This document shows positions 3,207 through 47,756 of a stretch of DNA of 49,995 nt, piece after piece. Source of the DNA: an uncultured bacterium (GTDB lineage Bacteria; Actinomycetota; Thermoleophilia; Gaiellales; F1-60-MAGs149); assembly GCA_963923625.1 (NCBI GenBank), contig CAWUMZ010000001.1:1-49995 (forward strand). The letters are read 5' to 3'. The notes under the pieces were generated by a model, which was given only the letters and a program-made list of their open reading frames with translations, had not been told where the DNA came from and ran no database searches. The translations under genes were made by a program, and so were the position numbers. Each line of letters begins with the position of its first letter. Position 1 is the stretch's first letter.

Positions 3207-3207
3207 C

Positions 3208-3289: not shown

Positions 3290-3290
3290 C

Positions 3291-4712: not shown

Positions 4713-4732
4713 GCGGCGAGTGTACCGCCAGT

Positions 4733-5266: not shown

Positions 5267-5307
5267 GGGAGCGGTGACGGCGAGCCGTGCTCGCCGCTGC
5301 CCTCTCC

Positions 5308-5964
5308 CTATCGCCCGGCGGTGTCGCTCGGCCGAGCCGGCGGGCGGATGTCGAGCGCGATCGATCCGTCCTCGAGCGCGAAGGCGTTCCACTCGCGCCA
5401 GCGCGGCGCGAGCTCCGCCAGCGAGTCGCCGCGTTCGTCGAGGCGCACGGCGGGGACGCCGCCGGGCTCGACGAGGTACCGATACCACGAGAGATCCCAC
5501 GCGATCGTGATCGCCGCGCCGGGACGGCGCCCGCCGAAGGCGACGACGCTGACGCGGCACTTGCCGAGGCTCTTCGAGATGCCCGAGACGGTCCCGCGGT
5601 ACGGGCTCTCGTTGAAGGTCTCGACGCTGATCAGCATCGTCGTCGCGCGCGCAAGTTCGTCGCCGGTGCCGAGGCCGTTCGGCGCGCGGATGGGGTCGAG
5701 CGGGTCGAGCTCGGGCGCCGCCCTGCGTCGACGGAGCCGCGTCAGCACGCTCTCCCGCTGGGCGTGGACCGGGGGCGGTGCGGGACGCCCCTCTTCGACC
5801 CAGCCGTCGCCGCGGGCCTCGGCGGCGCAGAGGCGGCAGACGGTGCGCGACCGGCCGTTGTGCGAGAAGCGCAGGGGCTCCTCGCCGAGCAGGATGGTGC
5901 GCTCGCAGATCGCGCACGCCAGCAGGCGGTCAGTGCTCGTCAATCGCTCGTGCGTCGCGGCCAT
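5308..5964 (-). CDS. hypothetical protein with an N-terminal CxxC...CxxC zinc ribbon
   Basis: MAATHERLTSTDRLLACAICERTILLGEEPLRFSHNGRSRTVCRLCAAE..., strong GC3 bias in this frame, ATG at 5964. I recognise no family. Confidence 0.65.
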   Translation of the reverse strand: MAATHERLTSTDRLLACAICERTILLGEEPLRFSHNGRSRTVCRLCAAEARGDGWVEEGRPAPPPVHAQRESVLTRLRRRRAAPELDPLDPIRAPNGLGTGDELARATTMLISVETFNESPYRGTVSGISKSLGKCRVSVVAFGGRRPGAAITIAWDLSWYRYLVEPGGVPAVRLDERGDSLAELAPRWREWNAFALEDGSIALDIRPPARPSDTAGR

Positions 5965-5993
5965 GGGGGCGGAAGCATACGGCGGCTGCGGTG

Positions 5994-6887
5994 TCAACGG
6001 TCGGACTGGCCGTCGCCGCGCGGATGCGCCTGGGCATGGGCACGGCGAAGGTGCGGGAGGCCGAGGTGCGTATAGACCTCGGTCGTGGCGAGCGAGGCGT
6101 GGCCGAGCAGCTCCTGGATCGCGCGCAGATCGCCGCCGCCCTCGAGCATGTGCGTCGCGTAGGCGTGGCGGAGCGCGTGTGGGCCGTGCGACTCGAGCCC
6201 CACCGCCTGCAGGCGCCGCGACAGCGCCCGCCGGACGGCGCTCGTGTCCATGCGGTTCCCGCGGGTCGACAGGAGCAGCGCGCGTGGCGAGTCGGCGGTG
6301 GTCAGCTCCGGCCGCCCGCGCACCACCCACGCGCTGATCGCCGCCGCCGCCGGGTCGCCGATCGGAACGAGCCGCGTCTTGCCGCCCTTGCCCGTCACGC
6401 GCAGCGTCCGTCCCTCGAGGTGGTCGATGTCGAGGGCACAGGCCTCCGCTGCGCGTAGGCCGGCGCCGTAGAGGAGCTCCAGCAGCGCGCGGTCGCGCAG
6501 GCCCGTCGGCGTCTCGGGCCAGGCGACGTCGAGCATACGAGCCGTGTCGCGCTCAGGCGGTACGACGGGGAGGCGCCGCTGGCGCTTGGGGCCGGGGATC
6601 TCAGCGGCGGGATCCTCGCCGCCGCCGCCCGCGAGGCGGCGGTGGAACCCGCGTACCGACGACAGTCGGCGCGCCCTCGTCGTCGCGGCGAGCTCGCGAG
6701 CCGCGAGATCGGCGGCGTAGGCGCGCACGTCGGCCCGGCTTGCGTGCGCGGGATCCGAACCGCGAGCAGCGAGCCACGCGGCGTAGTCGCGCAGGTCCGC
6801 GCGGTACGCGCGCAGCGTCTGCGGGCTCGCGCCGCGCGCGCTCAACGCAGCCAGGTGCTGCTCGATCGGATCGGCAACGGCGGTCAC
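5994..6887 (-). CDS. tyrosine recombinase, XerC/XerD family
   Basis: N-terminal SAM-like domain (TLRAYRADLRDYAAWL) and catalytic-domain motifs (HALRHAYATHMLEGGGDLRAIQELLGHASLATTEVYTHL). GTG start at 6887. Confidence 0.9.
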   Translation of the reverse strand: MTAVADPIEQHLAALSARGASPQTLRAYRADLRDYAAWLAARGSDPAHASRADVRAYAADLAARELAATTRARRLSSVRGFHRRLAGGGGEDPAAEIPGPKRQRRLPVVPPERDTARMLDVAWPETPTGLRDRALLELLYGAGLRAAEACALDIDHLEGRTLRVTGKGGKTRLVPIGDPAAAAISAWVVRGRPELTTADSPRALLLSTRGNRMDTSAVRRALSRRLQAVGLESHGPHALRHAYATHMLEGGGDLRAIQELLGHASLATTEVYTHLGLPHLRRAHAQAHPRGDGQSDR

Positions 6888-6923
6888 GACACTCCGTTCG
6901 CCATGCTCCGCCCGTCTCTTGCC

Positions 6924-7085
6924 TCAGCGGGAGCGGCGACGGAGGCCGCCGGCCGCCATCGTTCCCATCCAGACGGCGAGCACGAGGGCCCCGATCGCGG
7001 GGATGCGCTGCCCGCCGTTCCAGGCTGCCCACGCGATCACGAGCAGCCCCACGGCGAGGACCGCGAAGAGGAGACGCGTTGCCAT
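6924..7085 (-). CDS. small two-TM membrane protein (53 aa), hypothetical
   Basis: MATRLLFAVLAVGLLVIAWAAWNGGQRIPAIGALVLAVWMGTMAAGGLRRRSR. It has high GC3 and lies 36 nt upstream of the recombinase gene on the same strand. Confidence 0.45.
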   Translation of the reverse strand: MATRLLFAVLAVGLLVIAWAAWNGGQRIPAIGALVLAVWMGTMAAGGLRRRSR

Positions 7086-7157
7086 GACGGCACGGTCGCA
7101 TGTGTGCCCGCTCCCGTCCAGCGGCATGCCCGGGTCAAGGCGCATACAGTTCGATGC

Positions 7158-8315
7158 GTGAAGAGCGCCCGACTCCCGCTGCTCTTGGCGCTCATCGTCG
7201 CCCTGCTCGTGGCCGCGCTGCCCGCGCACGCGGCGCAGCGCACCACGCGCGTGGTGGGTGGGCAGCCTGCGGCGATGACCGACATGCCCTGGGTGGTGTA
7301 CCTGGAGGCCACCGTCAGCAGCTCGAACTCGTGGTCGTGCGGCGGCACGATCGTCGGCGTCCACTTCGTGCTGACGGCGGCGCATTGCGTCGTCGACAAG
7401 GGGCAGGCGATCAAGGCGAGTCAGATCAGCGGCGTGGCGGGGCGCGGTGACCTGCGCGGCACGGATGGCACGACGTTCGACGTCATCCGCATCGCCGTCA
7501 GTCCGACGTACAACCGGACGCGTGCCACGGAGGGCGGTCCGGGTGACGCGGCGCTGCTGTGGACGAGCGTGGACCTGCCGTACACGGCCCTGCCTCTTGC
7601 GACCACCAATGACGCAGCGTCATACGCGGCCGGCTCGATCGCGCGCATCGCGGGGTGGGGCCTCACGTCGACGTCGGGTGCCTCGAGCGACGTCCTGATG
7701 TCCGCGAACGTGCCGATCGTCTCCGATTCGGAGTGCGCGGCCGACGATCAGGTCTCCATGGCGGAGGCGCAGTCGATGGTGTGCGCCGGGTTCGCCGCGG
7801 GCGGCGTCGACACCTGTCAGGGCGACAGCGGCGGCCCGCTCACGGTGCCGAATGCGGCCGGTGCGACGATCCTCGCGGGCGTCGTCTCGTGGGGCTACGA
7901 GTGCGCAGCCGCCAGCCGGCCGGGACTCTACACCCGGGTGGCGACGCTGGTGCCGTGGCTGGCACCGCTCCTCACGGGTGACGAGGCCGCGTGGAGCGCC
8001 GCCTCGGACCAGCAGGCCCCGCGCGTGCGCCTGTCGCGAGCGCGGATGGATGCCAAGTCGTACGCGCGCTTCACGTACCGCATCCTCGGCGAAGCCGGAC
8101 CGACCCGCGAGACGATCACCATCCGTCGAACGCGCGGCGGCACGGTGCTCAAGCGCATCGCGACGAAGGCGGCGGTCAATCCGCCCGGGCAGAGCTCGTA
8201 CGTCTCCTGGCGCGTGCCCAACTCGCTGCCGTACGGCACGTACCTGTGGTGCCTGACTTCCAAGGACGCCTACGGCAACGCGTCGCCGATGCAGTGCGCG
8301 CCCCTCGTCGTCTGA
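7158..8315 (+). CDS. secreted trypsin-like serine protease (S1 family) with a C-terminal extension of about 120 aa
   Basis: Signal peptide KSARLPLLLALIVALLVAALPAHAAQ, then RVVGG..., LTAAHC (His) and DTCQGDSGGPL (Ser). The GTG at 7158 is the only in-frame start before the signal peptide. Confidence 0.85.
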   Translation: MKSARLPLLLALIVALLVAALPAHAAQRTTRVVGGQPAAMTDMPWVVYLEATVSSSNSWSCGGTIVGVHFVLTAAHCVVDKGQAIKASQISGVAGRGDLRGTDGTTFDVIRIAVSPTYNRTRATEGGPGDAALLWTSVDLPYTALPLATTNDAASYAAGSIARIAGWGLTSTSGASSDVLMSANVPIVSDSECAADDQVSMAEAQSMVCAGFAAGGVDTCQGDSGGPLTVPNAAGATILAGVVSWGYECAAASRPGLYTRVATLVPWLAPLLTGDEAAWSAASDQQAPRVRLSRARMDAKSYARFTYRILGEAGPTRETITIRRTRGGTVLKRIATKAAVNPPGQSSYVSWRVPNSLPYGTYLWCLTSKDAYGNASPMQCAPLVV

Positions 8316-8357
8316 CGCGGGATTGGCGTGGATTCGGCCGCGTGGTAGGTTGCCGCC

Positions 8358-9107
8358 ATGGCTTCCCACACCGTTGACCCCACGCTGCTCGCGCAAGGGC
8401 GCGAGGACCTCGCAGCGCTCCTGCGCATCTCCGCCGTGCACGGCTACAACGAGGGGATCGACAACCACTACTCGCTGGCGCTCGACGGGCACGATGATCT
8501 CTTCCTGCTCAACCGCTACGGCCCGCACTGGTCGGAGATGGTGCCGAGAGACATCCTGCTCGTCGACCTCGACGGCAACGTCGTCGACGGCGCCGGTGAC
8601 GGGCAGATCACCGCGCTGCAGATCCATCGGCAGATCCACCGTGCGCGACCGGACGCGCGTGTCGTCATGCACACGCACATGCCGTACGCCTCGGCGATCG
8701 CCTCGACGAAGACCGGCTTCGTCACGCGCCTCACGCAGAATTCGATGAGCTTCCACAACAGCGTTGCCACGCTCGACTACGGCGGGCAGGTGCAAGGCGA
8801 CGGCGAGGGCGCTCGGCTTGCGAACGCCGTTGCCGAGGGCGCCAACGCGATCTTCCTCCAGAACCACGGCGTCATCCTCGTCGGTGCGACGGCGGCCGAG
8901 GCGTGGCTGCGCACGTACTTCCTCGAGCGCGCCTGCGAGGTGCAGGTGCTCGCGCAGTCGACGGGTCAGGAGCTCGTGCTGGCCCCGGAGGACGTCGCCG
9001 CGCACACCGCGCAGCAATGGGCCGACGCGTGTCCGTACGAGGGGCCGCTTCTGTTCGACGCGATGAAGCGCCTGCTTGATCGCGATCAGCCCGGCTGGCG
9101 GGGCTAG
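8358..9107 (+). CDS. class II aldolase/adducin-domain protein
   Basis: Overall resemblance to class II aldolase/adducin N-terminal domain proteins (..RVVMHTHMPYASAIAS.., ..FLQNHGVILVG..). ATG at 8358. Confidence 0.75.
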   Translation: MASHTVDPTLLAQGREDLAALLRISAVHGYNEGIDNHYSLALDGHDDLFLLNRYGPHWSEMVPRDILLVDLDGNVVDGAGDGQITALQIHRQIHRARPDARVVMHTHMPYASAIASTKTGFVTRLTQNSMSFHNSVATLDYGGQVQGDGEGARLANAVAEGANAIFLQNHGVILVGATAAEAWLRTYFLERACEVQVLAQSTGQELVLAPEDVAAHTAQQWADACPYEGPLLFDAMKRLLDRDQPGWRG

Positions 9108-35185: not shown

Positions 35186-36412
35186 ATGGACCGCGCCGGC
35201 GAGATCCTCCAGACGAGGACCATGTTCGGCATGGAGCTGGGGCTCGAGCGCATCACCGCGATGCTCGAGCGGCTCGGCAACCCGCAGCGCTCGTTCCACG
35301 CGATCCACGTCGTCGGCACCAACGGCAAGTCCTCGACCACGCGTTTCATCGCCGCCGCGCTCGCCGCACAGGGAGCCAAGGCCGGCGCGTACCTCTCGCC
35401 GCACATCAACGGCTGGAATGAGCGCGTGCTGATCGCGGAGCCGCGTCGCCTGCCCGCCCCGATCGACGCGGGCGCGTTCGCCGACGCGATCGAGGCCGCG
35501 GAGGACGCAGCGCTCGCCGTCGACGCGGAGCGCGGGGGCGCGTGCACGCAGTTCGAGGTGCTCACCGCCGGCGCGCTGCTCGCGCTGCGCGAGGCCGGAG
35601 TGGAGGTCGCCGCGATCGAGGCCGGACTCGGCGGGCGCCTCGACGCGACCAACGTCCTCGACGCTCCGGTCGTCGTGCTGACCGGCGTCGCGCTCGAGCA
35701 CACGGAGCACCTCGGGAACACGCGCGAGCTGATCGCCGCGGAGAAGCTCGCGGTCCTGCGGCCGGGGGCGGTGCTCGTGGCCGGCGGCATGGACGACGAG
35801 ATCCGCCCGACGGTCGAGCGCCTCGCGGCCGAGCACGGCGTGGCGCGCGCGCTGCTCGTCGCACCCGGCATGCTCGACGACGAGCTGCCGGACCTGATGG
35901 CGGCGGGCACCTTCCAGCGCGCCAACGCGACGGTCGCGCTCGGTGCGGCGGCGGCGCTCGTCGGCGAGCAGTTCCGCGCCCGCGCGGCGATGGAGGCGAT
36001 CGCGAAGGTGATCGTGCCCGGACGCCTCGAGGTCATCGGCCGCTACCCGCTCGTGGTGCGCGATGCCGCGCACAATCCCGACGGCGCCCGTGTGCTGGCG
36101 GGCGAGCTACAGCTCGCGCTGCGTGGCGCGTCGCCGGTGATCGGGGTGATCGCGCTGCTCGCCGACAAGGACGTCGACGGTGTCCTCAGCGCACTGGCCG
36201 GCTCCTTCGACGCCGTCATCGCCACCGCGACGGAGTCCGAGCGGGCCCTGCCCGCCGAGCGTCTGATGGCCGCCTGCGCCGCACACGGGATCGACGCGGA
36301 GGTCGTGGCGGAGCCGGAGGCGGCGTTGACCCGTGCGCGCTTCCGCGCAGGCTCGGGCGGCGCGGTCGTGATCGCCGGATCGCTGACGCTGCTCGAGGAG
36401 CTCGCGCGCTAG
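35186..36412 (+). CDS. folC: bifunctional folylpolyglutamate synthase/dihydrofolate synthase
   Basis: Mur-ligase P-loop HVVGTNGKSSTTRF and its position after valS. ATG at 35186. Confidence 0.9.
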   Translation: MDRAGEILQTRTMFGMELGLERITAMLERLGNPQRSFHAIHVVGTNGKSSTTRFIAAALAAQGAKAGAYLSPHINGWNERVLIAEPRRLPAPIDAGAFADAIEAAEDAALAVDAERGGACTQFEVLTAGALLALREAGVEVAAIEAGLGGRLDATNVLDAPVVVLTGVALEHTEHLGNTRELIAAEKLAVLRPGAVLVAGGMDDEIRPTVERLAAEHGVARALLVAPGMLDDELPDLMAAGTFQRANATVALGAAAALVGEQFRARAAMEAIAKVIVPGRLEVIGRYPLVVRDAAHNPDGARVLAGELQLALRGASPVIGVIALLADKDVDGVLSALAGSFDAVIATATESERALPAERLMAACAAHGIDAEVVAEPEAALTRARFRAGSGGAVVIAGSLTLLEELAR

Positions 36413-36564
36413 ACCAGCAGCCGGCCGAATACGTAGCCGAGCACGTACGCCAGCAGGATCAGCCCCGCGAGGATCAGCACGGCGAAGATCAGGACGGTCG
36501 GACGGCCTCTCACACGGCTGATCGTACCGGGCGACCTGCGCACCGCGACGCCGCTGCCGGTCAT
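36409..36564 (-). CDS. small single-TM protein (51 aa), hypothetical
   Basis: MTGSGVAVRRSPGTISRVRGRPTVLIFAVLILAGLILLAYVLGYVFGRLLV. About 47 of 51 codons end in G/C. It overlaps the folC stop by 4 nt on the opposite strand. Confidence 0.4.
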   Translation of the reverse strand: MTGSGVAVRRSPGTISRVRGRPTVLIFAVLILAGLILLAYVLGYVFGRLLV

Positions 36565-36618
36565 GATTCGGGGACGCCGGCGCCGCTGGCGCCCGACTAC
36601 GACCGCACCAGGGGAACC

Positions 36619-37029
36619 ATGGAGACCACGCTCGTCCTGCTCAAGCCCGACGCCGTCCGCCGCCAGCTGATGAGCGAGATCATCGGCCGGTTCGAGCGCC
36701 GCGGCTTCACCTTCCGCGGTATGCGCCTGCTGCAGCTCGACCGAGCCACGGCCGAGCAGCACTACGCCGAGCACGCGGAGCGCCCGTTCTTCGGCGAGCT
36801 CGTCGACTTCATCACGTCCGGCCCGATCGTCGCGCTCGCCTTGCAGGGCAACGGCGCCGTCGCGACCGTCCGCGACATGATGGGCAAGACCAACCCGCTC
36901 GATTCCGCGCCCGGCACGATCCGCGGCGACCTCGCCCTCGAGCTGGCCGAGAACATCATCCACGGTTCGGATTCGCCTGAGTCGGCCGAGCGCGAGCTCG
37001 CGATCTACTTCCCCGACGGCCTGCTCTAG
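36619..37029 (+). CDS. ndk: nucleoside-diphosphate kinase
   Basis: METTLVLLKPDAVRRQLMSEIIGRFERRGF...NIIHGSDSPESAEREL. 136 aa. Confidence 0.96.
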   Translation: METTLVLLKPDAVRRQLMSEIIGRFERRGFTFRGMRLLQLDRATAEQHYAEHAERPFFGELVDFITSGPIVALALQGNGAVATVRDMMGKTNPLDSAPGTIRGDLALELAENIIHGSDSPESAERELAIYFPDGLL

Positions 37030-37038
37030 GCCCTCGGT

Positions 37039-37428
37039 TCAGCGCGGCGCGGGCGTCTTCGGCGCCCGCGTCTTGCGCTGGAACCGCCGCTGCTCGTCGG
37101 TGCCGCCCGGCAGATCGGCCGGCGGCTCGCCGTCGTCATCGTCCTCATCCTCGTCGTCCGCCCAGCCGCGTGCCAGATAGAGGAACGCGGCGCCGGCGAT
37201 ACCCGCCACCAGCAGCGCCAGCGCGAAGATGCGCTCCGACGACACGATCACGATCGCGCTCATCGCCACCCCGAACGCCAGGATCGCGACGCCGGCGAGC
37301 AGCGACATGACCCGCGGCGCAACGTGGCGTTGCGGGGGGCGCGAGCGGGCGGCGACGATCACCGCCACCAGCACGATGATGATCTCGATCGCGATCACAC
37401 GGAAACGGTAACGGAGCCCGCATGCCAT
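37039..37428 (-). CDS. hypothetical membrane protein with an acidic then basic C-terminal tail
   Basis: Three hydrophobic segments followed by ...GWADDEDEDDDDGEPPADLPGG...RKTRAPKTPAPR. The start is uncertain: ATG 37428, GTG 37398 or a later ATG. Confidence 0.55.
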   Translation of the reverse strand: MACGLRYRFRVIAIEIIIVLVAVIVAARSRPPQRHVAPRVMSLLAGVAILAFGVAMSAIVIVSSERIFALALLVAGIAGAAFLYLARGWADDEDEDDDDGEPPADLPGGTDEQRRFQRKTRAPKTPAPR

Positions 37429-38635
37429 GATCCGCGGCGTGAGCCACGTCCAGAACATCAAGGCCGTCGGGCACGACCTGCACGAGGCGGAGGAGTTCGT
37501 CTTCGAGCCGACCACGGTGCCGCAGAAGATCCTGCGGATCGTCGTGTGGCTGGCGATCGTGTTCGGCACGCTCGCGGCGCTGCAGGCGATCGGGATCGAT
37601 CCGATCGGGTGGCTGCGCGGCGTGGCCAACTCGATGGCGGACATCGAGCCGAAGTACCTCATCGCCGGCATCGTCTTCCAGACTGCGAACGTCCTGCTGG
37701 TCGGCTTCGCGTATGTGGCGATCTGGCGCTCGGCCTATCCGCAGGCCGGCAAGATCCCGGTCGGGCAGGTCGTCGCGTGCTTCGTGGTGTCGATCGCGCT
37801 CAACAGCGTCCTGCCCATGAGCATCGGCTCGTGGGTGATGCTCTTCATGTTCCTGGCGATCATCCCCGGTGCGACCGCGGCCGGCATGGCCTCCGGCTTC
37901 GGCGTCAGCAAGATGTTCTTCTTCGTGATGGGCATCATCACGTACGCCTACCTATTCATCTCGATCTCCGGCGCTCTCAACACCGCGGTCGGCGGGATCC
38001 AGAACCACCTGCCGGCGCTGATCGCGATTCTGATCGCGGTCGTGATCCTGATCGTCGTGCTGCTGAAGACGTTCCGGCAGAAGGCGATCAACAGCGTCAA
38101 GAACCTGAAGCAGGGCGCGAAGATCCTCAGCACACCGAAGCCGCTGATCCTGCTCGTGCTGCTGCCGCAGGCGCTCGGGTACAGCTTCCAGATCCTGACG
38201 ACCGCGGCGTTCATGCGCGGGTACGGGATCCCGGTCTCGATCGGGAACATCATCCTCAACAACGCGGCCAACTCGCTCGCGACGATCACGGCGGTCACGC
38301 CCGGCGGCGTGGGGGCGACGCAGGGCCTCACGACGATCGCACTCCACGGCGTCGCGACCCCGACCCAGATCGCCGGCTACTCGCTTGCTCAGCAGCTGAT
38401 CCTGACCGCGTGGAACTGCCTGCTCGCGACCGTGCTCGTGCTGGTGTTCTTCGGTTGGAGCGGCGGCCGGCAGATCGTCACGAACTCCCTCGTCAGCGCC
38501 CGCGAGGACATGCACGACAAGCGCGTCGCCAGCAAGCAGGCGAAGGCGGAGAAGAAGGCGGCCAAGCAGGCCGGTGCCGAGTCCGCCGGGCCGCACAGCG
38601 TCGACGGCACGTCGACGCCGCCTGATCAGGAGTAG
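37427..38635 (+). CDS. polytopic (about 8 TM) membrane protein, possibly of the UPF0104/LPG-synthase-TM (flippase-like) family
   Basis: 402 aa with about eight hydrophobic helices by eye and a Lys-rich C-terminal tail. The family call is tentative and from memory of the topology. Confidence 0.7.
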   Translation: MIRGVSHVQNIKAVGHDLHEAEEFVFEPTTVPQKILRIVVWLAIVFGTLAALQAIGIDPIGWLRGVANSMADIEPKYLIAGIVFQTANVLLVGFAYVAIWRSAYPQAGKIPVGQVVACFVVSIALNSVLPMSIGSWVMLFMFLAIIPGATAAGMASGFGVSKMFFFVMGIITYAYLFISISGALNTAVGGIQNHLPALIAILIAVVILIVVLLKTFRQKAINSVKNLKQGAKILSTPKPLILLVLLPQALGYSFQILTTAAFMRGYGIPVSIGNIILNNAANSLATITAVTPGGVGATQGLTTIALHGVATPTQIAGYSLAQQLILTAWNCLLATVLVLVFFGWSGGRQIVTNSLVSAREDMHDKRVASKQAKAEKKAAKQAGAESAGPHSVDGTSTPPDQE

Positions 38636-38738: not shown

Positions 38739-41700
38739 CTAGATCGAGAAGTCGACGCCCTCGGCTTCGACGCTCAGTTCGAACGGATCGGCGTTGAACG
38801 AGAAGCCGCCGTTGATGTTGATGAACGTCCCCCAGCCGCCCCAGCCGCCGCTGTAGCAGGTGAGGCAGGTCGTATGACCGCCGAGCCACCAGGGCCAGTG
38901 GACGCAGGCGCAGCTGTAGGAGTTCGCGAACGCGTTGTACCACTGCACCTGCACGTCGGCATCGGCGCTCGCCGAGACCGAGAAGTACGGCGCGGCATCC
39001 GAGATCAGCAGGGTTTCCGTGTACGAGAAGCACGCCTGCCAGTTGGCGGGCCAGATCTCCGTGGTGCCGGTGCACGAGCTGCCGCTCGAGTCCGACGTGA
39101 TGCTGAAGAAGCCGTTCGCGCCGATCACGATCGTCGGGAAGTTGTAGGTAATCCCGTAGACGTCGAGGGAGCCGGACATGGTCAGCGTCGTGGTGGTCGC
39201 CTGCGAGCAGCTCGGGTCGGTGCAGTTGGTGAAGACCCCCGACATCGAGGCGTCCGCCAGGTCGGGGATGTCGAGATTGCCGGCCGCGGCCAGGTAGAAG
39301 AGCGGCGCGCCGCCGTTCTCGATGAACGTCAGCTGGCCGTTGAGTGTCGCGAGGTCGGCGTTGAGCGCGATCTGCGCGTTCATGCCGAAGCTCGACGGCG
39401 TCTGATTCAGGTACACGGTCGTGTTGCCGAGGTTGAACCCGTCGAAGACCAGGTTGGCAGAGGCCGTCAGCGAGGTCGACGGCTGGCCGTTCTGCATCGA
39501 GAAGGCACCGGCGAAGGCGAGCGTGGTGCCACCGACGTCGAAGTTCGCTGCGCCGGAGATGCTCTCGTTGCCGTTCTGGCTGGCGACGGCGACCTGCATG
39601 TCCATCACGAAACCGGCGACGTCGAGGTTGCCGCTGCCGGTGAACGAGAAGTTGCCGTTCGAGTTGAAGTCGCCCGCGACGGTGATCTCGTTGTTCGTGC
39701 TCTGCGGCGACAGCGCGATGGTGGCGTTGAGGTTCGCGTAGTCGTCCGTGCCGACGTGGCCGAGGCCGACGTTGCCCGTCAGGCCGAAGCCGTCGATGCC
39801 GATCGCCACGTTCGTGGCGGCGAAGCTGAAGTCGCCGGGGCTGCCCTGCACCTGCTGGCCGGCGCTGTTGGTGACGGTCTCGGCGCAGCCGCTCTCGTAG
39901 ACGAGGGTGCCTTCAAGGGTGGCGGTGAAGAACGGGGCGTAGGCGAACGAGCCGGAGAACGCGACGCACTGCGGCGAGATCTCGAGCGTGGCGGGGTTGG
40001 CGGCGGTGCCGATGCTGAAGCCCGCGGCGGTCGTCAGGACGACGGCCGCGTTGAGGTCGAACGCCCCGGTCGATTGGGTGTACGACATGTCGAACGTGCC
40101 GTTGGCCATGGCCGCAGGTCCGAAGTTGAGGTTCGCCTGGATCTGGACGTTGACGTACTCGACGACGCCGTTGTCGATCGTGGCGTCGAACGCCTGCACG
40201 TTGACCGTGTTGCCCATGATGTCCATGTCGCCCGAGGCGGCGATCGACAGGTCGTTCGTGGAGGGCCCGTAGGTGACGTTGAGCGCGATCGAGAGATTGC
40301 TCAGCGAGAAGCCGGCGACGTTCAGCGATTGCGACTGCGAGACCTTGAGTCCCGCGGTGGTCGTGGAGGTTGCCCCGTCGTAGCTGAGATCGCCGCTGAC
40401 GTCGATCGTCGTGCCGAACATCGTGAATCCGCCGGCGAACGTGACGGTGTCGATCTGCGTCTGCTCGTTGAGCGAGACGGTGACGGTGGTCTGCTGGAAC
40501 TGCATGCCGCCGCCCGTGCCGGGGATGGTGAACGCGCCGACGGTGATGCTGGCGTTGAAGATCGTCGGGTCGAAGCTGAGGGCGGCCTGGACGTCGACCT
40601 CCGTGCCAAACAGCTGTCCGTCGAACGCCATCGAGAAGCCCGGCTGGATCACGATCGGCGTGCCGCCGACGTTGCCGAGGGTGCAGCCGTCGGGGGCGAT
40701 CACGAATTCGAAGTACGTCGCCTGCAGCGAGCCGCCGCCGACGCTGAGGATCGGGGTGGTGCCGGTCGACGAGCCGACCTGCACTTCGATGCACGGGTTG
40801 TCCTCGGAGAGCTCGGCGCCGATCGCGACGGGGATGTTGCCCGGCACGCCGAAGGCGCTCGTGAGCGCGGGCGGCAGGGAACCGGTGTTGAGGCTCGCGT
40901 AGAGCGCGACCGTCGGCGTGGGGAAGGGGACGCTGACGAGGTCGGCGCCGAGGGTGATGACGGCCTCGTTGATCGTGAGACCCTGATCGCCGAATGCGTT
41001 CTGCCAGTTCTCGATGCCGAACGAGGCGGAGACCTGCTGCGTGGTGAAGTCGTACGAGACCTCCACGGACATCTGCGGCGGCGATGACGTGCCGCCGCCG
41101 ACCGCGGCTGCGCTGAGGTTGGCGACGCCGCCCGCCGACACCGTCAGGCCCTCGGCGTTGTTGGTGATGCCGAAGTTGAGCGACGGCATCTGGATCTTCG
41201 ATCCGCCGGACGGGATCGAGTAGCTGCCGGGGATGTCGACGATCGCGTTGAAGAAGCCGGTGGTCGGGTCGAACTGGATCGTGCTGATGGCGTTCGGCAG
41301 GGAGGCTCCGACCAGTGTGGAGAACCATTGCGGCGAGGAGTACCCGCCGGTCACGGAGATCTCGCCGGGGGTCAGCGCGATGGTCTGCTTGCCGAAGCTC
41401 GGCAGGTCGAAGGACATCGTCGAGCCGAAGGACGAGTAGCCGAAGGCCGTGCCCGACTGGGAGCCGTTGCCGCCGCTGAGGGTGACGCCGTCGGCATCCC
41501 AGCCGCCCATCGAGATGCCCTGCGAGGTGATGTTGGTCGCGATCTCGGAGAAGTCGCCGAGACCCGGCACGGTCAGGCCGCCGGCGGTGCTGATCGACCA
41601 GCCGCTCTCCGTCGCCCCGGTGAAGGTCGGCGCGCCGGTCGTAGGTGTGACGCTGCCGGCAGGCAGGTCATAGCCCACGGTGATCGACGGATTCGAGAAC

Positions 41701-44700
41701 GACAGGCCCGGAGCGACGTTGATGCCGTTCGGCACGTCGGCGTAGAGCGAGAATCCGGATCCGCCGCCGATGCCGAAGACCGCGTCCGCATCGGCGGTGA
41801 TCGAGTCGCCGACGGGCGGATTCAGGTTCGCCGTCGTCGAGATCATCATGAACAGGTCCGCCTTCGGGCAGACGAGGTTCGTGAGGGTGCACGAGCTGCC
41901 CATGTCGAGCGTGGTGTTGTTGAGGGTCAGCACGGACGAGACGGTCCACGTCGGGATCACGGCCTTGACGTCCCAGTTCCAGGCGGCGTTGGTCTGCCCG
42001 ATCGAGCCCGAGAAGTCGGACGGCGTCACGTTCAGACCAGGCAGCGGCTGCCAGGTGGGGCCACCGCTGGCGGAGAGCGTGACGTTCCAGTTGGTCGTGT
42101 CGGTGTAGCTGAAGGCCGCGTTGAGGTTCGTCGGCGTCTCGCTGCCGCTGCTGATCGCGACCGTCGCCTTGCCGGTGAAGATCGGGCCGGTCGTGGCCGA
42201 GGTCCAGGTGGCGGTCAGCGTCGTCAGCTGCACGCCGCTCGCGAGGGTGGCGGGCGAGCCGATCGAGCCCGTCACGGTGGAGACGACGGAGCCGCTCGTA
42301 TTGGTGACGTTGCCGGACACGTCGACCGCCGCGTTGCCCACCGTGACGATGTCCTGGGCGGAGACGGACGCGCTGTACGTGCCGTTGTTGTTGAGGGTGC
42401 CGCTGACGCTGACGCCGTGGCTGCCATCGCTGCCCGTCGCGGTGATCGTGCCGTAGACGCCCGCGGTCGGTCCGAAGGAGAGGTTGGCGTTGCCGCTCCA
42501 GCCGGCGGGCAGGGTCAGGAGCGGGAACTGCGGGACCGGGATGTCGCCGATCAGCTGGGCGATGGTGCCGCCGCTGGACGACCCGCCGCCGCTCGAGCCG
42601 CCGCCGTTGCCGCCGGGCGCGACGAACACCAGGGACAGCGGGTTGTTCGTGATCGAGACGTTCGGCAGGCGCCACGAGCTCGGCAGCGACAGCGAGGCCT
42701 GCGGCATCGTGATGGTGGGGCTCAGCGAGGTGCCCTCGACGTCATTGACGCTGACGGTCGCGTTCGTGATCGTGGCGGTCAGGCCCGGGATGGCGGTGAT
42801 CGAGCCGCTCAGCGTCGCGGTCATCGAGAAGGCCGGCGTGCCGCCGAGTCCGAACACGGCATCGGCCGCGATCGTGATCGGGTCGCTCAGCGGCGGATCG
42901 ACGACCGCCGTCGTGTCGATGTTGAAGAACACCATCGACTTCGGGCAGGTGATGCCCTTCGTGGCGGTGCAGGCGCCCGACAGCTCCAGCGTCGTCTTCG
43001 TCAGCGTCAGCACCGACGCGGCCTTCCAGGTCGGCACGTTCGCGGTGACGTTCCACTGCCACGCGCCGTTGTCCTGGGCGATGCTGCCCGAGAAGTCGGA
43101 CGGGGAGATGCTCAGGCCATTGAGCGGCTGCCACGTGGGGCCGCCGCTGCCGGTCAGCGTCGCGCTCCAGTTCGAAGGATCGGTGTAGGAGAGCGTCGCG
43201 TTGAGCGCCGTCGGCGTCGCGCCGGACGTGCTCAGGGCGACGGTCGCCGATCCGGTCAGGATCGGGCCGTTCGAGGCCGTCGTCCAGTTCGCCTTCAGGG
43301 TCGAGAGTGCGACGCCGGGTGCGAGAGCGGTGGAGGAGGTCGTCGAGCCCGCGATCGAGGATACGGTGGTGCCGGACGCGTTGCTCGTGGTGCCGCTCAT
43401 GTCGAGCGACGTGCTGCCGATGGTCAGGATGTCGTTGGCCGTGACGCTGGCGGTGAAGGTGCCGGTCGTCGAGAGCGAGCCCGTCACGGCGACCTGGCCG
43501 CTGCCGTTGGTGGCGCTGGCGTCGACGGCGCCGGTGGTGGTGGCGCCATTGGGCGTGAAGGTCAGCGTCGTCGAGCCGGTCCAGCCGCTCGGCAGCGTCA
43601 GGAACGGGAAGGCCTTCGCGGTGATCGAGCCGCTCAGTTGCGCGTTGGCGCTGCTGCCGCCCGTGAACACGAGCGACAGCGGCGTGCTGCCGATCGAGAT
43701 CGCCGGCAGCTGCCAGCTGGCGGGCGTGGCGACGGTGCCGGAGGTGATCTCGATGCCGGCGGGCATCACGTAGCCCGCGGCATTGGAGATGGTGACGCCG
43801 CCGACGGTGAAGCTCGAGGCCGAGAACGGCGTGCCGTCGCTCGGCGTGGATGCCTGTCGCGTGCCCGCGCCCTTGCCGCTGCATGCGCTGGTCTGGGCGG
43901 CGGAGGGTGGCGTGATCGTCCCGAAGGTGGCGCTGTTGCCCGTGCCGAGCGGGAGATTGAGCGAGCCGCTGCCCGAGGCCTTGGCCGTCTGCGTGAGGAA
44001 CGAGCAGTACGCCTTGCCGGCGGACGCGCCGACGGAGACCGTCACGGTGCCCGTCCCCTGCGTGCCCGTGTTGTCGGTGGCCGTGACGGTGTACACGAGC
44101 AGTCCGGTGCGGCCGGGGACCCTGATCTTCGCGACGGATGACGTGTCATCGGAGATCGGCGTCTTGGTGCCGCTCACCTGCGCCCACTTGTACTTGAGCT
44201 CGCCGTTGCCGCCGGAGACCCGGACCTCGAGTGCCAGCTCCGCGTTCGGCGCGGCCGTCAGCAGCGGACCGCCGGCCACCGAGACGGTCGGCGGCGAGGC
44301 CTGCGTCGTGACGGTCGCGTCGGCGGTGCTGTGCGCGCCGGCGCCATCGGTGGCGGTGACGCGGAAGCCCAGCCCCTCGCTGGTGCTCGGCATCGTGAAG
44401 ACCGCCGTGGAGCCGGTCTTCGCCGAGAGGGCGACCGACGGTCCGGAGGTCTGCGCCCAGCTGTAGGTCACCGTGCCCGTGCCGCCCTGCGCGAGTGCCG
44501 TGAGCTGCACCTTGCTGCCGGGCAGTGCGCCGAGCGACGGGGCGCCGACGATGCTGGCGGCAAGCGCCTGCGTGGTGTCGGTGGCCTTCACGTCGGAGCC
44601 GACATCGACCGTCACGCGTGCGGAGCCCTGCTTGCCGCCGCCGTCGGTGACGGTGACGGTGTAGCTGACGAGCCCCTTCGTCGCCGGCATGTGCGCCTTC

Positions 44701-47700
44701 GTGCTCTCGCCGGCGGCATCCGAGAGCGTGGTGGGTGCACCGGCCGACTGCTTCCACGCGTAGTGCCGTTCGCCGGACCCGCCGCTGACAACTGCGCGGA
44801 GGGTCAACTCGGCGCCGGTCGCCGCGCTCTGCAGCGTGCCACCCTCGATCGTCACCTTCGGGCCGCCCTTGAGTGCCGCGCTGCCCTTGGCCGCGTTCGC
44901 CTTCTGCGTCGCCTTCGCCGAGGAGGCGCGCTGGCTGTCGCGCTTGCGGCGATCCGCCTCGGCGGCCTTCTGCTTCGACTTCTGGGCGGCCTTCTTGCCC
45001 GCCACGTCGCTGCTCTTGCCCGACGACGTGCGCTCACCGCCCTGCTTGAGCTTCTGCGGCGGGACCGCCGTGGTGCGCACGACCTGGGTGCGCGTGGAGC
45101 TGTGGTCGGAGATCGTCAGCTCGAAGACGTACGTGGTGCGCCGCTTCACGCCGGGGATCAGGGCGCGGGCGGTGGCGGCATGGGGATGCTCGACGCGCAC
45201 GACCGGCGACGGCGTCGCGGACGGGCACTTGCCGAATGCCTTGACGTCTTCCGCGGTCGTGCAGCGCTGCACCCAGGTGTAGTCGAGGGAGACGCCGTTG
45301 CCGGCGCTCTTGCTGCCCTTCAGCACGACGGTGCGCAGCTTCTTCGAGTTGCTCGACGCGGCGAGCGTCGACGGCGAGGCGGAGGCGGCGATCGAGATGG
45401 GGGAGCGCACGGGCAGCTTCTGGTGCACGACGCCGACCTCGACGTGCCTGGTCGCGATGGTGCGCGCCGTCGCGTTCCACGTGGTGGCGGCGACGCGCTT
45501 CTTGCCGGTGGCGTCGACGAGCAGCGTCACCTTCGGCGTGCGCGTGCGCTGGGCGAGCGTCGGCGCGAAATCGCATGTCAGCGCCTGGCCGCTGCGGCTG
45601 CAGGTCCAGTTCGAGCCCGTCGCGCTGACGAGCGAGATGCCGGTGGGCAGCGTGGTGGTGACCCGCAGTCGATCGATCGCGTTGTGCTTCTGCAGGTTCG
45701 CCGCGCTCATCGTGATCTCGCCGCGCCCACCCGAGTCGGGGATCTGCCGGACATCCGTCGAGATGCGGACCGTGCGGTCCGTGGCGACCACGCGCAGACG
45801 GACGGGAACGCGGTCCTCGCCCGGATCGCCCGACAGCTTCGCGATGACGGGCCCGAGCGGCGCGTCCTTCGTCTCGCGCGACGGCAGCACGGTGATGTCG
45901 ATGGTGCCGACGACTCCGCCGGGGGCGACGGCCGCTGAGGGGCTCAGTGAGCACGACACGTTGCGACCGGTCGTGCAGGTCCCCTCGCCGTTGACGCCGG
46001 CGGAGATGAGCTTCACGCCGCTGCCGATGGTCTCGGAGATCGAGACCGTCGATCCGGCCGGCACCGCATCACCGCCGTGATTCTCGAGCTGCACGCGGTA
46101 CGTGAACGCCTGGTCCTTCATCACCTTGGTGTGGCCGCCGTCCTTCCACGTCTTCCAGGTGTGGCCGTCGCTCTTGAACTGGATCGAGGGGGCGATGCGC
46201 GGATCGCCGACGTCCTGCACGATGAAGGGCACGGTGTGGGAGATGTCGTGCCGGCTGTTGTCGGCGTACGGCGTCGTCGTGATCTTCCCGTGCGTCGCCG
46301 GCGTGGCCGTCGTCGTCGCCGCCGTGACGTCGATCGTCGCGTACTTGCCGACGGCCACGGAGGAGGTCGGGTTGACGCACTCGGCGCCGAGGCTGTTCGG
46401 CGTGCATGTCCAGCCGCTCGTGTGGCTGGTCAGCGTGATGCCCTTCGGCAGTGCGATGCGCACACCCGGGTGCGTGGCGGTCACGTCGCCGGTGTTGCGC
46501 ACGCGGATGCGCAGCTGGGTGGTGCGGCCCTGCGCGACGTCGATGCCGTGCTTGGCCTCGACGCGCGCCGTCATCGTCGCCGGCTGCAGGACGTGGAACT
46601 TCCAGCTGTAGCGCTGCGAGAAGCACGTCGTGCCCTTCTGGCGCGCCGTCGTCGCCCCCTGGTCGGCGATCGTGGTCCAGTTGACCTTGCCGCTCAGCTG
46701 CCACTTGATGCGCTTCGCCTTGCCATCCGACAGCCGCACGAGCGGAGTCCAGTGGACGTGCAGGTACTCCGCCTCGGCGCCGATGTCGACGGGGCGGTGG
46801 TACGTGCAGATGGTGGTGCCCGTGGCGTCGGAGCAGGACCAGCCGACGCCGGTCACCGTGAACGCCACGTCCGGCGCGCTCTCCGGAAGGATGCCCTGGA
46901 CCATCAGCGAGGGCTTACCGCCGACGCTCTGCGCGACGAGGCCGCCAACGTTGCGCAGGCGGATCACGAAGTCGCGCTCGCTGCCGACGCTGTCGGTGGC
47001 GTCGATCGTGGAGCGGATCAGCGGCTGGACGAAGCCGGTGATCGCCTCCGCCGCCACCGTGCTCGTCGCGGTGAGCGTGCCGGCCTCCGTGGGGACGGCG
47101 AGGGCGGCGGTGATGTCGCCGAGGGCGATCTGCTGCGCGACGCTCGGATCGGGCGGGTTCGGTGTGTTCTTCGGCGGCGTCGGCACGAGATTCGGCGCGG
47201 CCTTCACGATCATGAAGAGCTCGACGACCTGGTTCGGCTGCACGGACGCGGCTTCGGTCGAGGTGAGGCTGCGGTTCATCGTGCAGGTGACGACCTGTCC
47301 AGCGGTCGTGCAGGTGAAGGCGCCGTTCATGCGCGCCTGGTCGCGATCGTCGGCCTGCACGCCGACGTACGTGAGGCCCGCGGGGAGCGTGATCGTGGTC
47401 GTGAGCGGTCCGCCCGACAGCGTGGTGTGGTCGTACTTCATCGCCATCTGGATCACGCCGGTGCGGCCCTGGCCGATCGTGAAGTACTTCGACTTGCTCT
47501 GGCCGTTCGAGTTCGAGCGGCCGATCGGCTTCACCTCGATCCACGCGTACGGCGCGTCCGACGAGCGTGTCGCCGCGGTCTGCTCGGCGGTGAGCGCGGT
47601 GGACACGGCGGCGGTCGTCGCAACGGGAGCGGCGGTCGCGTCGGCGCCGGTCGCCGGCGCCTCCTGCGCCCCGGCGGCTGCGGTGAGGGCGAGCAGCGCG

Positions 47701-47756
47701 AGCAGCAGCGCGGCGGCGAATGGCCCTGCTCGACGGACGACTCCCAGCTGGTTCAC
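38739..47756 (-). CDS. giant secreted multi-domain protein (3,005 aa): signal peptide, DUF11-like repeats, PKD-like repeats, basic linker, two large novel repeats, Gly/Ser/Thr/Asn-rich C-terminal region with a Cys/Trp-rich end
   Basis: Uninterrupted 9,018-nt ORF with strong GC3 bias. GTG start with GAGGGA upstream. Signal peptide ...FAAALLLALLALTAAAGAQE. DUF11-type motifs (LPAGLTYV...FTCT..VTCT; GWSCS; GWTCT; NWTCS) and PKD-like Y-x-W-x-Q motifs. Confidence 0.9.
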   Translation of the reverse strand: MNQLGVVRRAGPFAAALLLALLALTAAAGAQEAPATGADATAAPVATTAAVSTALTAEQTAATRSSDAPYAWIEVKPIGRSNSNGQSKSKYFTIGQGRTGVIQMAMKYDHTTLSGGPLTTTITLPAGLTYVGVQADDRDQARMNGAFTCTTAGQVVTCTMNRSLTSTEAASVQPNQVVELFMIVKAAPNLVPTPPKNTPNPPDPSVAQQIALGDITAALAVPTEAGTLTATSTVAAEAITGFVQPLIRSTIDATDSVGSERDFVIRLRNVGGLVAQSVGGKPSLMVQGILPESAPDVAFTVTGVGWSCSDATGTTICTYHRPVDIGAEAEYLHVHWTPLVRLSDGKAKRIKWQLSGKVNWTTIADQGATTARQKGTTCFSQRYSWKFHVLQPATMTARVEAKHGIDVAQGRTTQLRIRVRNTGDVTATHPGVRIALPKGITLTSHTSGWTCTPNSLGAECVNPTSSVAVGKYATIDVTAATTTATPATHGKITTTPYADNSRHDISHTVPFIVQDVGDPRIAPSIQFKSDGHTWKTWKDGGHTKVMKDQAFTYRVQLENHGGDAVPAGSTVSISETIGSGVKLISAGVNGEGTCTTGRNVSCSLSPSAAVAPGGVVGTIDITVLPSRETKDAPLGPVIAKLSGDPGEDRVPVRLRVVATDRTVRISTDVRQIPDSGGRGEITMSAANLQKHNAIDRLRVTTTLPTGISLVSATGSNWTCSRSGQALTCDFAPTLAQRTRTPKVTLLVDATGKKRVAATTWNATARTIATRHVEVGVVHQKLPVRSPISIAASASPSTLAASSNSKKLRTVVLKGSKSAGNGVSLDYTWVQRCTTAEDVKAFGKCPSATPSPVVRVEHPHAATARALIPGVKRRTTYVFELTISDHSSTRTQVVRTTAVPPQKLKQGGERTSSGKSSDVAGKKAAQKSKQKAAEADRRKRDSQRASSAKATQKANAAKGSAALKGGPKVTIEGGTLQSAATGAELTLRAVVSGGSGERHYAWKQSAGAPTTLSDAAGESTKAHMPATKGLVSYTVTVTDGGGKQGSARVTVDVGSDVKATDTTQALAASIVGAPSLGALPGSKVQLTALAQGGTGTVTYSWAQTSGPSVALSAKTGSTAVFTMPSTSEGLGFRVTATDGAGAHSTADATVTTQASPPTVSVAGGPLLTAAPNAELALEVRVSGGNGELKYKWAQVSGTKTPISDDTSSVAKIRVPGRTGLLVYTVTATDNTGTQGTGTVTVSVGASAGKAYCSFLTQTAKASGSGSLNLPLGTGNSATFGTITPPSAAQTSACSGKGAGTRQASTPSDGTPFSASSFTVGGVTISNAAGYVMPAGIEITSGTVATPASWQLPAISIGSTPLSLVFTGGSSANAQLSGSITAKAFPFLTLPSGWTGSTTLTFTPNGATTTGAVDASATNGSGQVAVTGSLSTTGTFTASVTANDILTIGSTSLDMSGTTSNASGTTVSSIAGSTTSSTALAPGVALSTLKANWTTASNGPILTGSATVALSTSGATPTALNATLSYTDPSNWSATLTGSGGPTWQPLNGLSISPSDFSGSIAQDNGAWQWNVTANVPTWKAASVLTLTKTTLELSGACTATKGITCPKSMVFFNIDTTAVVDPPLSDPITIAADAVFGLGGTPAFSMTATLSGSITAIPGLTATITNATVSVNDVEGTSLSPTITMPQASLSLPSSWRLPNVSITNNPLSLVFVAPGGNGGGSSGGGSSSGGTIAQLIGDIPVPQFPLLTLPAGWSGNANLSFGPTAGVYGTITATGSDGSHGVSVSGTLNNNGTYSASVSAQDIVTVGNAAVDVSGNVTNTSGSVVSTVTGSIGSPATLASGVQLTTLTATWTSATTGPIFTGKATVAISSGSETPTNLNAAFSYTDTTNWNVTLSASGGPTWQPLPGLNVTPSDFSGSIGQTNAAWNWDVKAVIPTWTVSSVLTLNNTTLDMGSSCTLTNLVCPKADLFMMISTTANLNPPVGDSITADADAVFGIGGGSGFSLYADVPNGINVAPGLSFSNPSITVGYDLPAGSVTPTTGAPTFTGATESGWSISTAGGLTVPGLGDFSEIATNITSQGISMGGWDADGVTLSGGNGSQSGTAFGYSSFGSTMSFDLPSFGKQTIALTPGEISVTGGYSSPQWFSTLVGASLPNAISTIQFDPTTGFFNAIVDIPGSYSIPSGGSKIQMPSLNFGITNNAEGLTVSAGGVANLSAAAVGGGTSSPPQMSVEVSYDFTTQQVSASFGIENWQNAFGDQGLTINEAVITLGADLVSVPFPTPTVALYASLNTGSLPPALTSAFGVPGNIPVAIGAELSEDNPCIEVQVGSSTGTTPILSVGGGSLQATYFEFVIAPDGCTLGNVGGTPIVIQPGFSMAFDGQLFGTEVDVQAALSFDPTIFNASITVGAFTIPGTGGGMQFQQTTVTVSLNEQTQIDTVTFAGGFTMFGTTIDVSGDLSYDGATSTTTAGLKVSQSQSLNVAGFSLSNLSIALNVTYGPSTNDLSIAASGDMDIMGNTVNVQAFDATIDNGVVEYVNVQIQANLNFGPAAMANGTFDMSYTQSTGAFDLNAAVVLTTAAGFSIGTAANPATLEISPQCVAFSGSFAYAPFFTATLEGTLVYESGCAETVTNSAGQQVQGSPGDFSFAATNVAIGIDGFGLTGNVGLGHVGTDDYANLNATIALSPQSTNNEITVAGDFNSNGNFSFTGSGNLDVAGFVMDMQVAVASQNGNESISGAANFDVGGTTLAFAGAFSMQNGQPSTSLTASANLVFDGFNLGNTTVYLNQTPSSFGMNAQIALNADLATLNGQLTFIENGGAPLFYLAAAGNLDIPDLADASMSGVFTNCTDPSCSQATTTTLTMSGSLDVYGITYNFPTIVIGANGFFSITSDSSGSSCTGTTEIWPANWQACFSYTETLLISDAAPYFSVSASADADVQVQWYNAFANSYSCACVHWPWWLGGHTTCLTCYSGGWGGWGTFININGGFSFNADPFELSVEAEGVDFSI
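41685..43790 (-). repeat. tandem duplication of a module of about 340-360 aa (about 1,020-1,080 nt) inside the giant gene
   Basis: Unit A is 43790->42771 and unit B is 42770->41685. The two DNA lines 42001-42060 and 43081-43140 align in register at an offset of exactly 1,080 nt. Shared peptide motifs: PLSLVF, FP.LTLP.GW.G, SYTD..NW, SGGPTWQPL.GL...PSDFSGSI, PTW...SVLTL, CPK, ADAVFG.GG. Confidence 0.8.
44028..44856 (-). repeat. three tandem PKD-like (about 86-aa) domain repeats inside the giant gene
   Basis: The repeats contain ...LTLRAVVSGGSGERHYAWKQSAGAPTTL..YTVTVTDGGG.., ...LTALAQGGTGTVTYSWAQTSGPSVAL..FRVTATDGAG.. and ...LEVRVSGGNGELKYKWAQVSGTKTPI..YTVTATDNTG... A fourth, more divergent copy lies upstream at about 45070-45400. 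Confidence 0.7.

Follow-up and report, generated by a model that had tools for sequence, protein, structure and literature searches.

The gene described here lies in a 49,995-nucleotide stretch of DNA, referred to as the window, which spans positions 1 to 49,995 of contig CAWUMZ010000001.1 (assembly GCA_963923625.1) from an uncultured bacterium of the Gaiellales (Actinomycetota, Thermoleophilia). It is a single uninterrupted open reading frame (ORF) of 3005 codons with a GTG start codon, and its product is probably a cell-surface protein of ∼300 kDa, Sec-exported and fibrillar, of freshwater Thermoleophilia. Giant secreted surface proteins with immunoglobulin (Ig)-like stalks are of a known general kind; the new part is a conserved beta block of 1,300-1,700 amino acids (aa) that is undescribed in Pfam, NCBIfam or the PDB. 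The original prediction, made from the sequence alone, had proposed a secreted giant protein with a definite order of domains, five Cys pairs, a Lys/Arg-rich linker and a terminal module of eight Cys and eight Trp, and all of these elements were located where they had been placed. The features of the gene are as follows.

38739..47756, minus strand: complete coding sequence of the giant protein, 3005 aa plus stop codon, mature mass ∼301 kDa.
47664..47756, minus strand: Sec signal peptide (aa 1-31) with the cleavage motif AGA/QE, the sole stretch with a 19-residue mean hydropathy above 2.
47472..47663, minus strand: Ala/Thr-rich low-complexity leader (aa 32-95), read from the sequence.
45387..47471, minus strand: five DUF11/CLIPPER-like Ig domains (aa ∼96-790), a Cys pair in each, isoelectric point (pI) 9.6.
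45042..45386, minus strand: PKD-like domain preceding the linker (aa ∼791-905), K319L-like_PKD with an expectation value (E) of 1.4e-4.
44847..45041, minus strand: Lys/Arg-rich linker (aa 906-970), pI 10.9.
43872..44846, minus strand: three K319L-like PKD domains (aa 971-1295), PF22352 with E 4.4e-26.
42780..43871, minus strand: repeat unit A (aa 1296-1659), predicted all-beta, one Cys pair, no family match.
41640..42779, minus strand: repeat unit B (aa 1660-2039), ∼24 strands in an AlphaFold2 model, no Foldseek match.
39270..41639, minus strand: conserved, predicted amphipathic beta-hairpin meander (aa 2040-2829), 3 Lys and no Arg.
38742..39269, minus strand: C-terminal cap (aa 2830-3005), 8 Cys, 8 Trp and a conserved W-G-x-W motif, ratio of nonsynonymous to synonymous substitution rates (dN/dS) 0.064.

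The GTG start codon is immediately preceded by the purine-rich sequences GGAGGAG and GAGGGA, which resemble Shine-Dalgarno sites. The G+C fraction at third codon positions (GC3) is 0.95, on par with that of the genuine neighbouring genes, and the antisense ORFs nested inside the gene are spurious, as is typical of a genome with 70% GC. Alignment with the orthologue at locus L003, which derives from an independent assembly, revealed 86% amino acid identity and a dN/dS of 0.14 over 3,004 aligned codons. Regional dN/dS values lay at 0.17-0.20 for the Ig-like stalk and at 0.06-0.12 for the repeat units and C-terminal block, the Cys/Trp cap having the lowest value of all. The signal peptide contains an RR pair and an 18-residue hydrophobic core (residues 12-30 are strongly hydrophobic) ahead of the cleavage site, and AXA cleavage sites are also present in the homologues. 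The gene is real, encodes a protein with an export signal and is under purifying selection that is strongest at the C-terminus. Inspection of the 3,005-aa protein and a hydropathy scan revealed neither an LPXTG motif nor a C-terminal transmembrane segment, and Pfam and NCBIfam gave no match to SLH, OmpA-like or other anchor domains, in agreement with the prediction that sorting signals and SLH- or choline-type anchors are lacking. The protein contains 31 Cys residues.

The proposal that the N-terminal third contains five DUF11 domains held in part. The Cys pairs of DUF11-like domains 1 to 5 are positioned at aa 149/158, 308/317, 451/460, 594/602 and 719/728. Scanned singly, domain 3 scored above the Pfam DUF11 (PF01345) gathering score (E 8.5e-7, 29.7 bits versus 24.6), domains 4 and 5 fell just below the cut-off (E 2.7e-4 and 5.5e-4; 21.7 and 20.7 bits), and domains 1 and 2 gave no DUF11 profile match and are assigned by the Cys motif alone. 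Whole-protein hmmscan returned no DUF11 even at E values up to 1, as opposed to the 29.7 bits reached in single-domain scans; long, compositionally biased proteins can lose genuine domain matches in scan filters. A PDB sequence search with the DUF11 region gave no match. The four PKD-like domains were likewise supported to different degrees, since the three that follow the linker (aa ∼975-1300) matched PF22352 with 91 bits, above the gathering score, whereas the one before the linker remained sub-threshold in the single-domain scan (22.3 bits versus a 27-bit cut-off). In NCBIfam, the whole protein matched a single model, that of a myxobacterial protease, and there only the PKD portion. Homologues P0001-P0007 and P0011 have an equivalent of the basic linker. 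DUF11, recently renamed CLIPPER (PMC12617251), and PKD are both established stalk domains in fibrillar adhesins (PMC9210967, PMC12617251).

The remainder of the protein (aa 1296-3005) gave no match in Pfam or NCBIfam at E values up to 10, and profiles of its two regions, the repeat unit and the C-terminal block, gave no match to PDB sequences, consistent with the prediction that the C-terminal two-thirds belong to no described family. The adhesin, S-layer and autotransporter families in which a match had been sought are not represented: no adhesive domain was recognised by Pfam or NCBIfam anywhere in the giant protein, no autotransporter or outer-membrane protein match was obtained in Pfam, and no S-layer or SLH-type match was obtained in Pfam or NCBIfam. 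The Pfam scan likewise revealed no LLTP (vitellogenin-type) N-terminal domain. When 13 family members per region were compared with Pfam and NCBIfam, only scattered single-member noise was returned, and the AsmA/DUF490 profile matched 1 of the 13 members with E 0.37. A literature search found no paper on this family of giant proteins.

Self-comparison confirmed the two tandem repeats of ∼340-360 aa that had been described, locating them at aa 1307-1660 and 1660-2037 with a mutual identity of 41-54%. The possibility that the block behind them consists of further copies of the unit was rejected, as hhalign of unit against block gave only a marginal match of 33 columns; at the level of sequence, the repeat unit and the C-terminal block have no detectable homology to each other. 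The meander contains the invariant motifs W-x-[ND]-A-F-G-x-x-G-L, A-P-x-G-C-T and G-D-F-x-F, and all Cys and Trp residues of the cap fall within aa 2845-2975. Nearly every invariant column holds Gly, Phe, Trp, Pro, Ala or Cys. No conserved polar residues of catalytic type were seen in the alignment of the C-terminal module, which suggests a structural role.

A word-indexed search identified 16 relatives, in all of which the order of parts is identical and most of which have a single 360-aa unit. A profile of the last 966 aa was then searched exhaustively against 1.84 billion representatives of clusters at 50% identity, and it matched 643 clusters at E values up to 1e-3 and 280 at E values up to 1e-30. 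Region aa 1296-3005 is unannotated but not unique, the profile matches indicating a family of at least 643 clusters. The module ends no more than 12 residues from the C-terminus in 57 of the 62 proteins with a complete module, and the 360-aa unit lies directly upstream of it in one copy (84 of 96 proteins), two copies (6/96) or three (2/96). The giant protein has the ∼930-position module, its four motifs (W-x-[ND]-A-F-G, A-P-x-G-C-T, G-D-F-x-F and W-G-x-W) and the 360-aa unit upstream. The N-terminal arrays differ among members (DUF11, PKD or fn3), total length ranges from 1,345 to 7,222 aa, and the source annotations read 'hypothetical protein' or are names derived from fn3. Apparent stand-alone modules of ∼1,000 aa were discounted, being gene fragments without signal peptides.

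A genome scan with the 146-aa core of the alignment yielded 21 loci, all in metagenome-assembled genomes (MAGs) of Actinomycetota and mostly of freshwater Thermoleophilia (Gaiellales, Miltoncostaeales), with sources that include the lakes Pavin, Mendota, ELA and Loclat. Mine drainage is the source of one distant member, which lies in an Acidimicrobiaceae MAG, and the named hosts all belong to the Actinomycetota (Thermoleophilia, Acidimicrobiia). Paralogues occur: locus L023 (Gaiellales MAG CAXNNM010000004) has giant genes in tandem at 1-2037 and ∼2800-8939 with a small membrane-protein gene between them, and another MAG has two paralogues on separate contigs (L006, L015). Loci L006, L011, L015 and L021 are labelled 'Bifidobacterium breve' or 'uncultured Bifidobacterium sp.', yet carry a giant gene of the Thermoleophilia type; L015 also has the ValRS-NDK synteny described below and L011 the P-type ATPase, and the Bifidobacterium labels look wrong. 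At two loci, a second giant gene, of pentapeptide repeats, comes after the gene for homologue P0009 (L024 15527-22867, 2,446 aa; L025 7968-15251, 2,427 aa), and at L024 this second gene begins right at the P0009 stop codon. At L002, an overlapping gene for a 420-aa fn3 protein comes after that of homologue P0015.

The AlphaFold2 model of the last 966 aa, computed from a 13-sequence alignment, had a mean predicted local distance difference test score (pLDDT) of 73.8 and a predicted template modelling score (pTM) of 0.42. It is nearly all beta, with ∼65 strands, mostly of 10-14 residues, that are joined at both ends by two-residue Gly/Asn/Asp turns with no long loops, and its regularity is greatest at aa 2643-2941. 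The C-terminal region is therefore predicted to be an antiparallel beta-hairpin meander. The stacked beta structure that had been suggested is not supported if a solenoid is meant. Along the strands, residues point alternately to a hydrophobic face (Phe, Leu, Val, Ile, Ala, Met) and a polar one (Ser/Thr/Asn/Gln/Asp), and across 72 modules of the family conservation is far stronger on the hydrophobic than on the polar face (2.12 versus 2.73 bits, p 5e-23). In a Foldseek comparison with the PDB, the beta-belt of apoB100 ranked first (9ea7, E 1.3e-8, probability 1.0) with a TM-score of 0.18 and 9% sequence identity, followed by LptD-type sheets, ushers, VDAC and Deinococcus SlpA. All TM-scores were at most 0.28, with barrels at 0.10-0.28, so the feature shared with these structures is local hairpin geometry only. 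In apoB100, the belt forms an unbroken amphipathic beta sheet that lies on lipid (PMC11839476). The model of unit B (381 aa) was confident (pLDDT 80.8, pTM 0.76, ∼24 strands), and Foldseek found no match to it in the PDB (best E 0.016, TM-score 0.16) or in BFVD. Since a confident model was obtained without a PDB match, the unit may represent a new beta fold; the designation 'no known fold' is provisional and refers to comparison of the models with the PDB and, for the unit, also with BFVD.

The two parts of the protein are oppositely charged. The mature N-terminal 1,265 residues have a pI of 9-11, and the C-terminal 1,710 residues have a pI of ∼4.05 and a total of 14 Lys/Arg, the last 966 aa containing 3 Lys and no Arg. 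In homologue P0010, a stretch of 1,700 residues lacks Lys and Arg altogether. The dipole is retained in most close homologues, with a net charge of +40 to +80 for the N-terminus and -60 to -90 for the block. Strong depletion of Lys and Arg was found in just 21 of 57 complete modules (median Lys plus Arg 2.9% in the module versus 6.7% upstream); it was thus rejected as a defining property and is a lineage trait, not a module requirement. Depletion possibly reflects resistance to trypsin-like proteases, electrostatics relative to an anionic wall, or ease of export. The same genome encodes a trypsin-family serine protease at 6642-8315 on the plus strand (Pfam E 2e-46), the annotated 5' end of which overlaps a recombinase gene at 5994-6887, and the last 1,400 residues of the giant protein are nearly without trypsin cleavage sites. 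The C-terminal block would yield hardly any tryptic peptides, so trypsin-based proteomics and metaproteomics would largely overlook it even if the protein were a major envelope component.

The gene had been described as accessory-looking, a view that is not supported by purifying selection or by the neighbourhood, since the order ValRS, NDK, small membrane protein, giant gene and P-type ATPase recurs in several MAG loci. The neighbours were identified as predicted, namely a P-type ATPase and a flippase-like protein, the latter of the LPG_synthase_TM family and found only in the window and at L003 among the neighbourhoods compared. The original prediction had also hinted at a functional link to these membrane proteins. 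This was not borne out: no conserved partner or dedicated secretion genes were found in the nine neighbourhoods searched, and those of the distant homologues share no gene. Contigs of distant members carry a sortase in one case and LppM in another, consistent with Actinomycetota of Gram-positive type.

Several observations concern the adjoining genes. The small-protein ORF (37039-37671, minus strand) has ∼3 transmembrane segments by eye, an Asp/Glu-rich tail, a basic end and no Pfam match, and its gene adjoins the giant gene or ndk at L003, L014, L015 and L023. Its true start is probably M72 or M82, since conservation is confined to aa ∼72-210. The 5' part of this ORF and that of the LPG_synthase_TM ORF (37427-38635, plus strand) overlap in antisense orientation, which indicates that one start, if not both, is over-called. 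The 495-aa ORF at 35542-37029 (plus strand) has the NDK domain in its last 135 residues and is 64% identical to L003 over its full length; either NDK is considerably extended at its N-terminus, or a further gene that has gone unrecognised lies between valS and ndk. The gene at 5994-6887 (minus strand) encodes a tyrosine recombinase of XerC/D type and lies amid housekeeping genes (urocanase, malate synthase, rimP-nusA-infB, ilvD, recQ and opp), with no mobile element evident.

Overall, we infer a surface location for the giant protein, with the C-terminal end proximal, self-association, and a role as coat or adhesin. The reading that we favour, tentatively, is a fibrillar surface protein without a covalent anchor, in which the C-terminal block is the cell-proximal base that retains or assembles the fibril and the Ig stalk points outwards. 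The protein consists of two halves, a fast-evolving basic stalk (five DUF11/CLIPPER-like domains, four PKD-like domains and the linker) and a slow-evolving acidic block, predicted to be all-beta and composed of the ∼360-aa unit (duplicated here), a ∼790-aa meander of 10-14-residue hairpins and the 176-aa Cys/Trp cap. The block would be the last part to leave the Sec channel and would fold as a large multi-layer beta structure, its conserved hydrophobic faces buried against itself, neighbouring copies or the membrane surface. So folded, it could retain the protein, and the variable stalk would extend from it as a coat or adhesin layer. A module fixed at the C-terminus, variable N-terminal arrays and the lack of partner genes together form the pattern of a sorting or anchoring end with a variable passenger. 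In the CLIPPER adhesin that has been studied structurally, the anchor is likewise C-terminal (PMC12617251).

Several points weigh against this arrangement. An anchor of 1,300-1,700 aa is without precedent, and an acidic block nearly free of Lys and Arg would better suit an exposed, protease-resistant surface than an anionic wall. The basic N-terminal third could bind anionic wall polymers, which would flip the orientation, and no adhesive tip domain was recognised at the N-terminus in Pfam or NCBIfam. Moreover, the model of the block has a pTM of just 0.42, and burial of the hydrophobic faces is an assumption.

The flipped orientation itself, the main rival, is somewhat unlikely. Here the basic N-terminal third, linker included, would attach electrostatically to anionic polymers of the wall, and the acidic block would be the distal part, acting as a canopy resistant to proteases, an S-layer-like coat or a binding surface. 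The dipole conserved in most close homologues, the near absence of Lys and Arg from the last 966 aa and their absence from P0010 all suit an outermost block, and the window also encodes a protease of the trypsin family. The composition of the block, acidic and rich in Gly, Ser, Thr, Ala and Asn, is typical of S-layer proteins. In planktonic freshwater Actinobacteria, S-layers have been reported to be tied to grazing resistance (PMC7669872). However, the part that would be exposed is the most conserved and the stalk that would be buried is the most variable, which speaks against the block being outermost because exposure to phages and grazers usually gives the reverse. Depletion of Lys and Arg in 21 of 57 modules indicates further that it is not intrinsic to the function of the module, and Pfam revealed no known wall-binding domain.

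It is unlikely that the protein is released and acts on membranes as an apoB-like sheet, on the membrane of the producing cell, on vesicles or on those of prey or competitors, where it could bind lipid, coat vesicles or form pores. The ranking of the apoB100 belt ahead of LptD-type sheets among the structural matches, the 10-14-residue strands with one hydrophobic face and the lack of a recognisable anchor are consistent with such a role. Nevertheless, the apoB100 match (TM-score 0.18) reflects local hairpin geometry only, no LLTP domain precedes the sheet, and an acidic sheet free of Lys and Arg should be repelled by anionic bacterial lipids. Nor does the family have a variable toxin-like end, an immunity-like neighbouring gene or a conserved partner.

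Actinomycetota are taken to be a single-membrane phylum. A more far-reaching interpretation, which we regard as improbable, is that the block constitutes a new envelope structure in them, a giant amphipathic beta-sheet belt or shell lying on a lipid surface or tiling the cell, with a fold that has no solved relative. It would serve as a protein barrier layer standing in for an outer membrane or S-layer.

It is highly unlikely that the block is a giant beta-barrel of outer-membrane type or autotransporter-like, a reading by which the envelope of these lineages would have two membranes. The Foldseek matches include LptD, ushers, VDAC and Deinococcus SlpA, the succession of signal peptide, passenger and C-terminal beta module resembles type V secretion, and the last strand has alternating hydrophobic residues and ends in Ile. 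The barrel is disfavoured by the low TM-scores to barrels (0.10-0.28), the two-residue turns at both strand ends in place of long loops, a content of Trp (1.2%) and Tyr (2.3%) too low for an aromatic girdle, a last residue that is aromatic in 3 of 57 members, the lack of a Pfam autotransporter or outer-membrane protein match, and the host phylum, with sortase and LppM on related contigs. Finally, although long spurious ORFs do arise in GC-rich genomes and many are present in the ORF list of the window, there is practically no likelihood of a non-coding ORF, given the GC3, the dN/dS over 3,004 codons and the full-length orthologues in many independent assemblies, or of the chimera of collapsed repeats against which the original prediction had cautioned, which is excluded by the 41-54% identity of the units, the lack of noteworthy DNA tandem repeats in the gene and the recurrence of the two-unit architecture in independent assemblies (P0001 on more than 27 contigs, P0017, L003, L004).

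Lakes, soils and mine waters harbour abundant Thermoleophilia and Acidimicrobiia, which are almost uncultured and whose envelopes are essentially undescribed. The giant gene represents a conserved, syntenic and strongly constrained 9-kb investment of such organisms, and belongs to an unannotated family of at least 643 clusters. If the block is indeed a device for retention or assembly, it would constitute a new, non-covalent means by which giant fibrils are held on single-membrane cells.

Comparison with known systems places the protein as follows. AsmA/TamB-like beta-groove proteins also have a long all-beta region with a hydrophobic face, but the giant protein has a cleavable signal peptide in place of an N-terminal membrane anchor and no AsmA/DUF490 profile match, and these proteins were not among the Foldseek matches of the models in the PDB. 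With LptD, ushers and autotransporter barrels it shares amphipathic antiparallel strands of similar length and a C-terminal beta module behind a passenger; it differs in lacking similarity to closed barrels (TM-scores of at most 0.28), an aromatic girdle and an aromatic C-terminus, and in its single-membrane host phylum. The resemblance to the apoB100 beta-belt (9ea7; PMC11839476) lies in very long series of antiparallel amphipathic strands of ∼12 residues with tight turns, whereas the giant protein is bacterial, acidic, nearly free of Lys and Arg, devoid of an LLTP domain and helical inserts, and related to the belt by a TM-score of only 0.18. Like the S-layer proteins of Gram-positive bacteria (Lactobacillus Slp, Bacillus Sap/EA1), it is exported by Sec without a covalent anchor, is rich in Ser, Thr, Ala, Gly and Asn, and may combine a wall-binding with a self-assembling part; in contrast to them, it has no SLH or known wall-binding module, is 3-10 times larger and contains 31 Cys residues.

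A further close likeness is to the fibrillar adhesins (Monzon et al., PMC9210967; Protein Sci 2025, PMC12617251), from which the giant protein differs in having no known adhesive domain or anchor (LPXTG, OmpA-like, SLH or transmembrane) and in ending in the conserved, undescribed beta block of 1,300-1,700 aa. Its DUF11-like domains also appear to lack the Asp of the isopeptide triad (Lys-Asp-Asn) of CLIPPER domains, as judged by eye only, the 'x-D-x-L-P' position being occupied by Ala, Thr or Gly in all five. What it has in common with these adhesins is great length, Thr-rich composition, Sec export and a stalk of tandem DUF11/CLIPPER-like domains with Cys pairs and PKD domains, the number of which varies between relatives.

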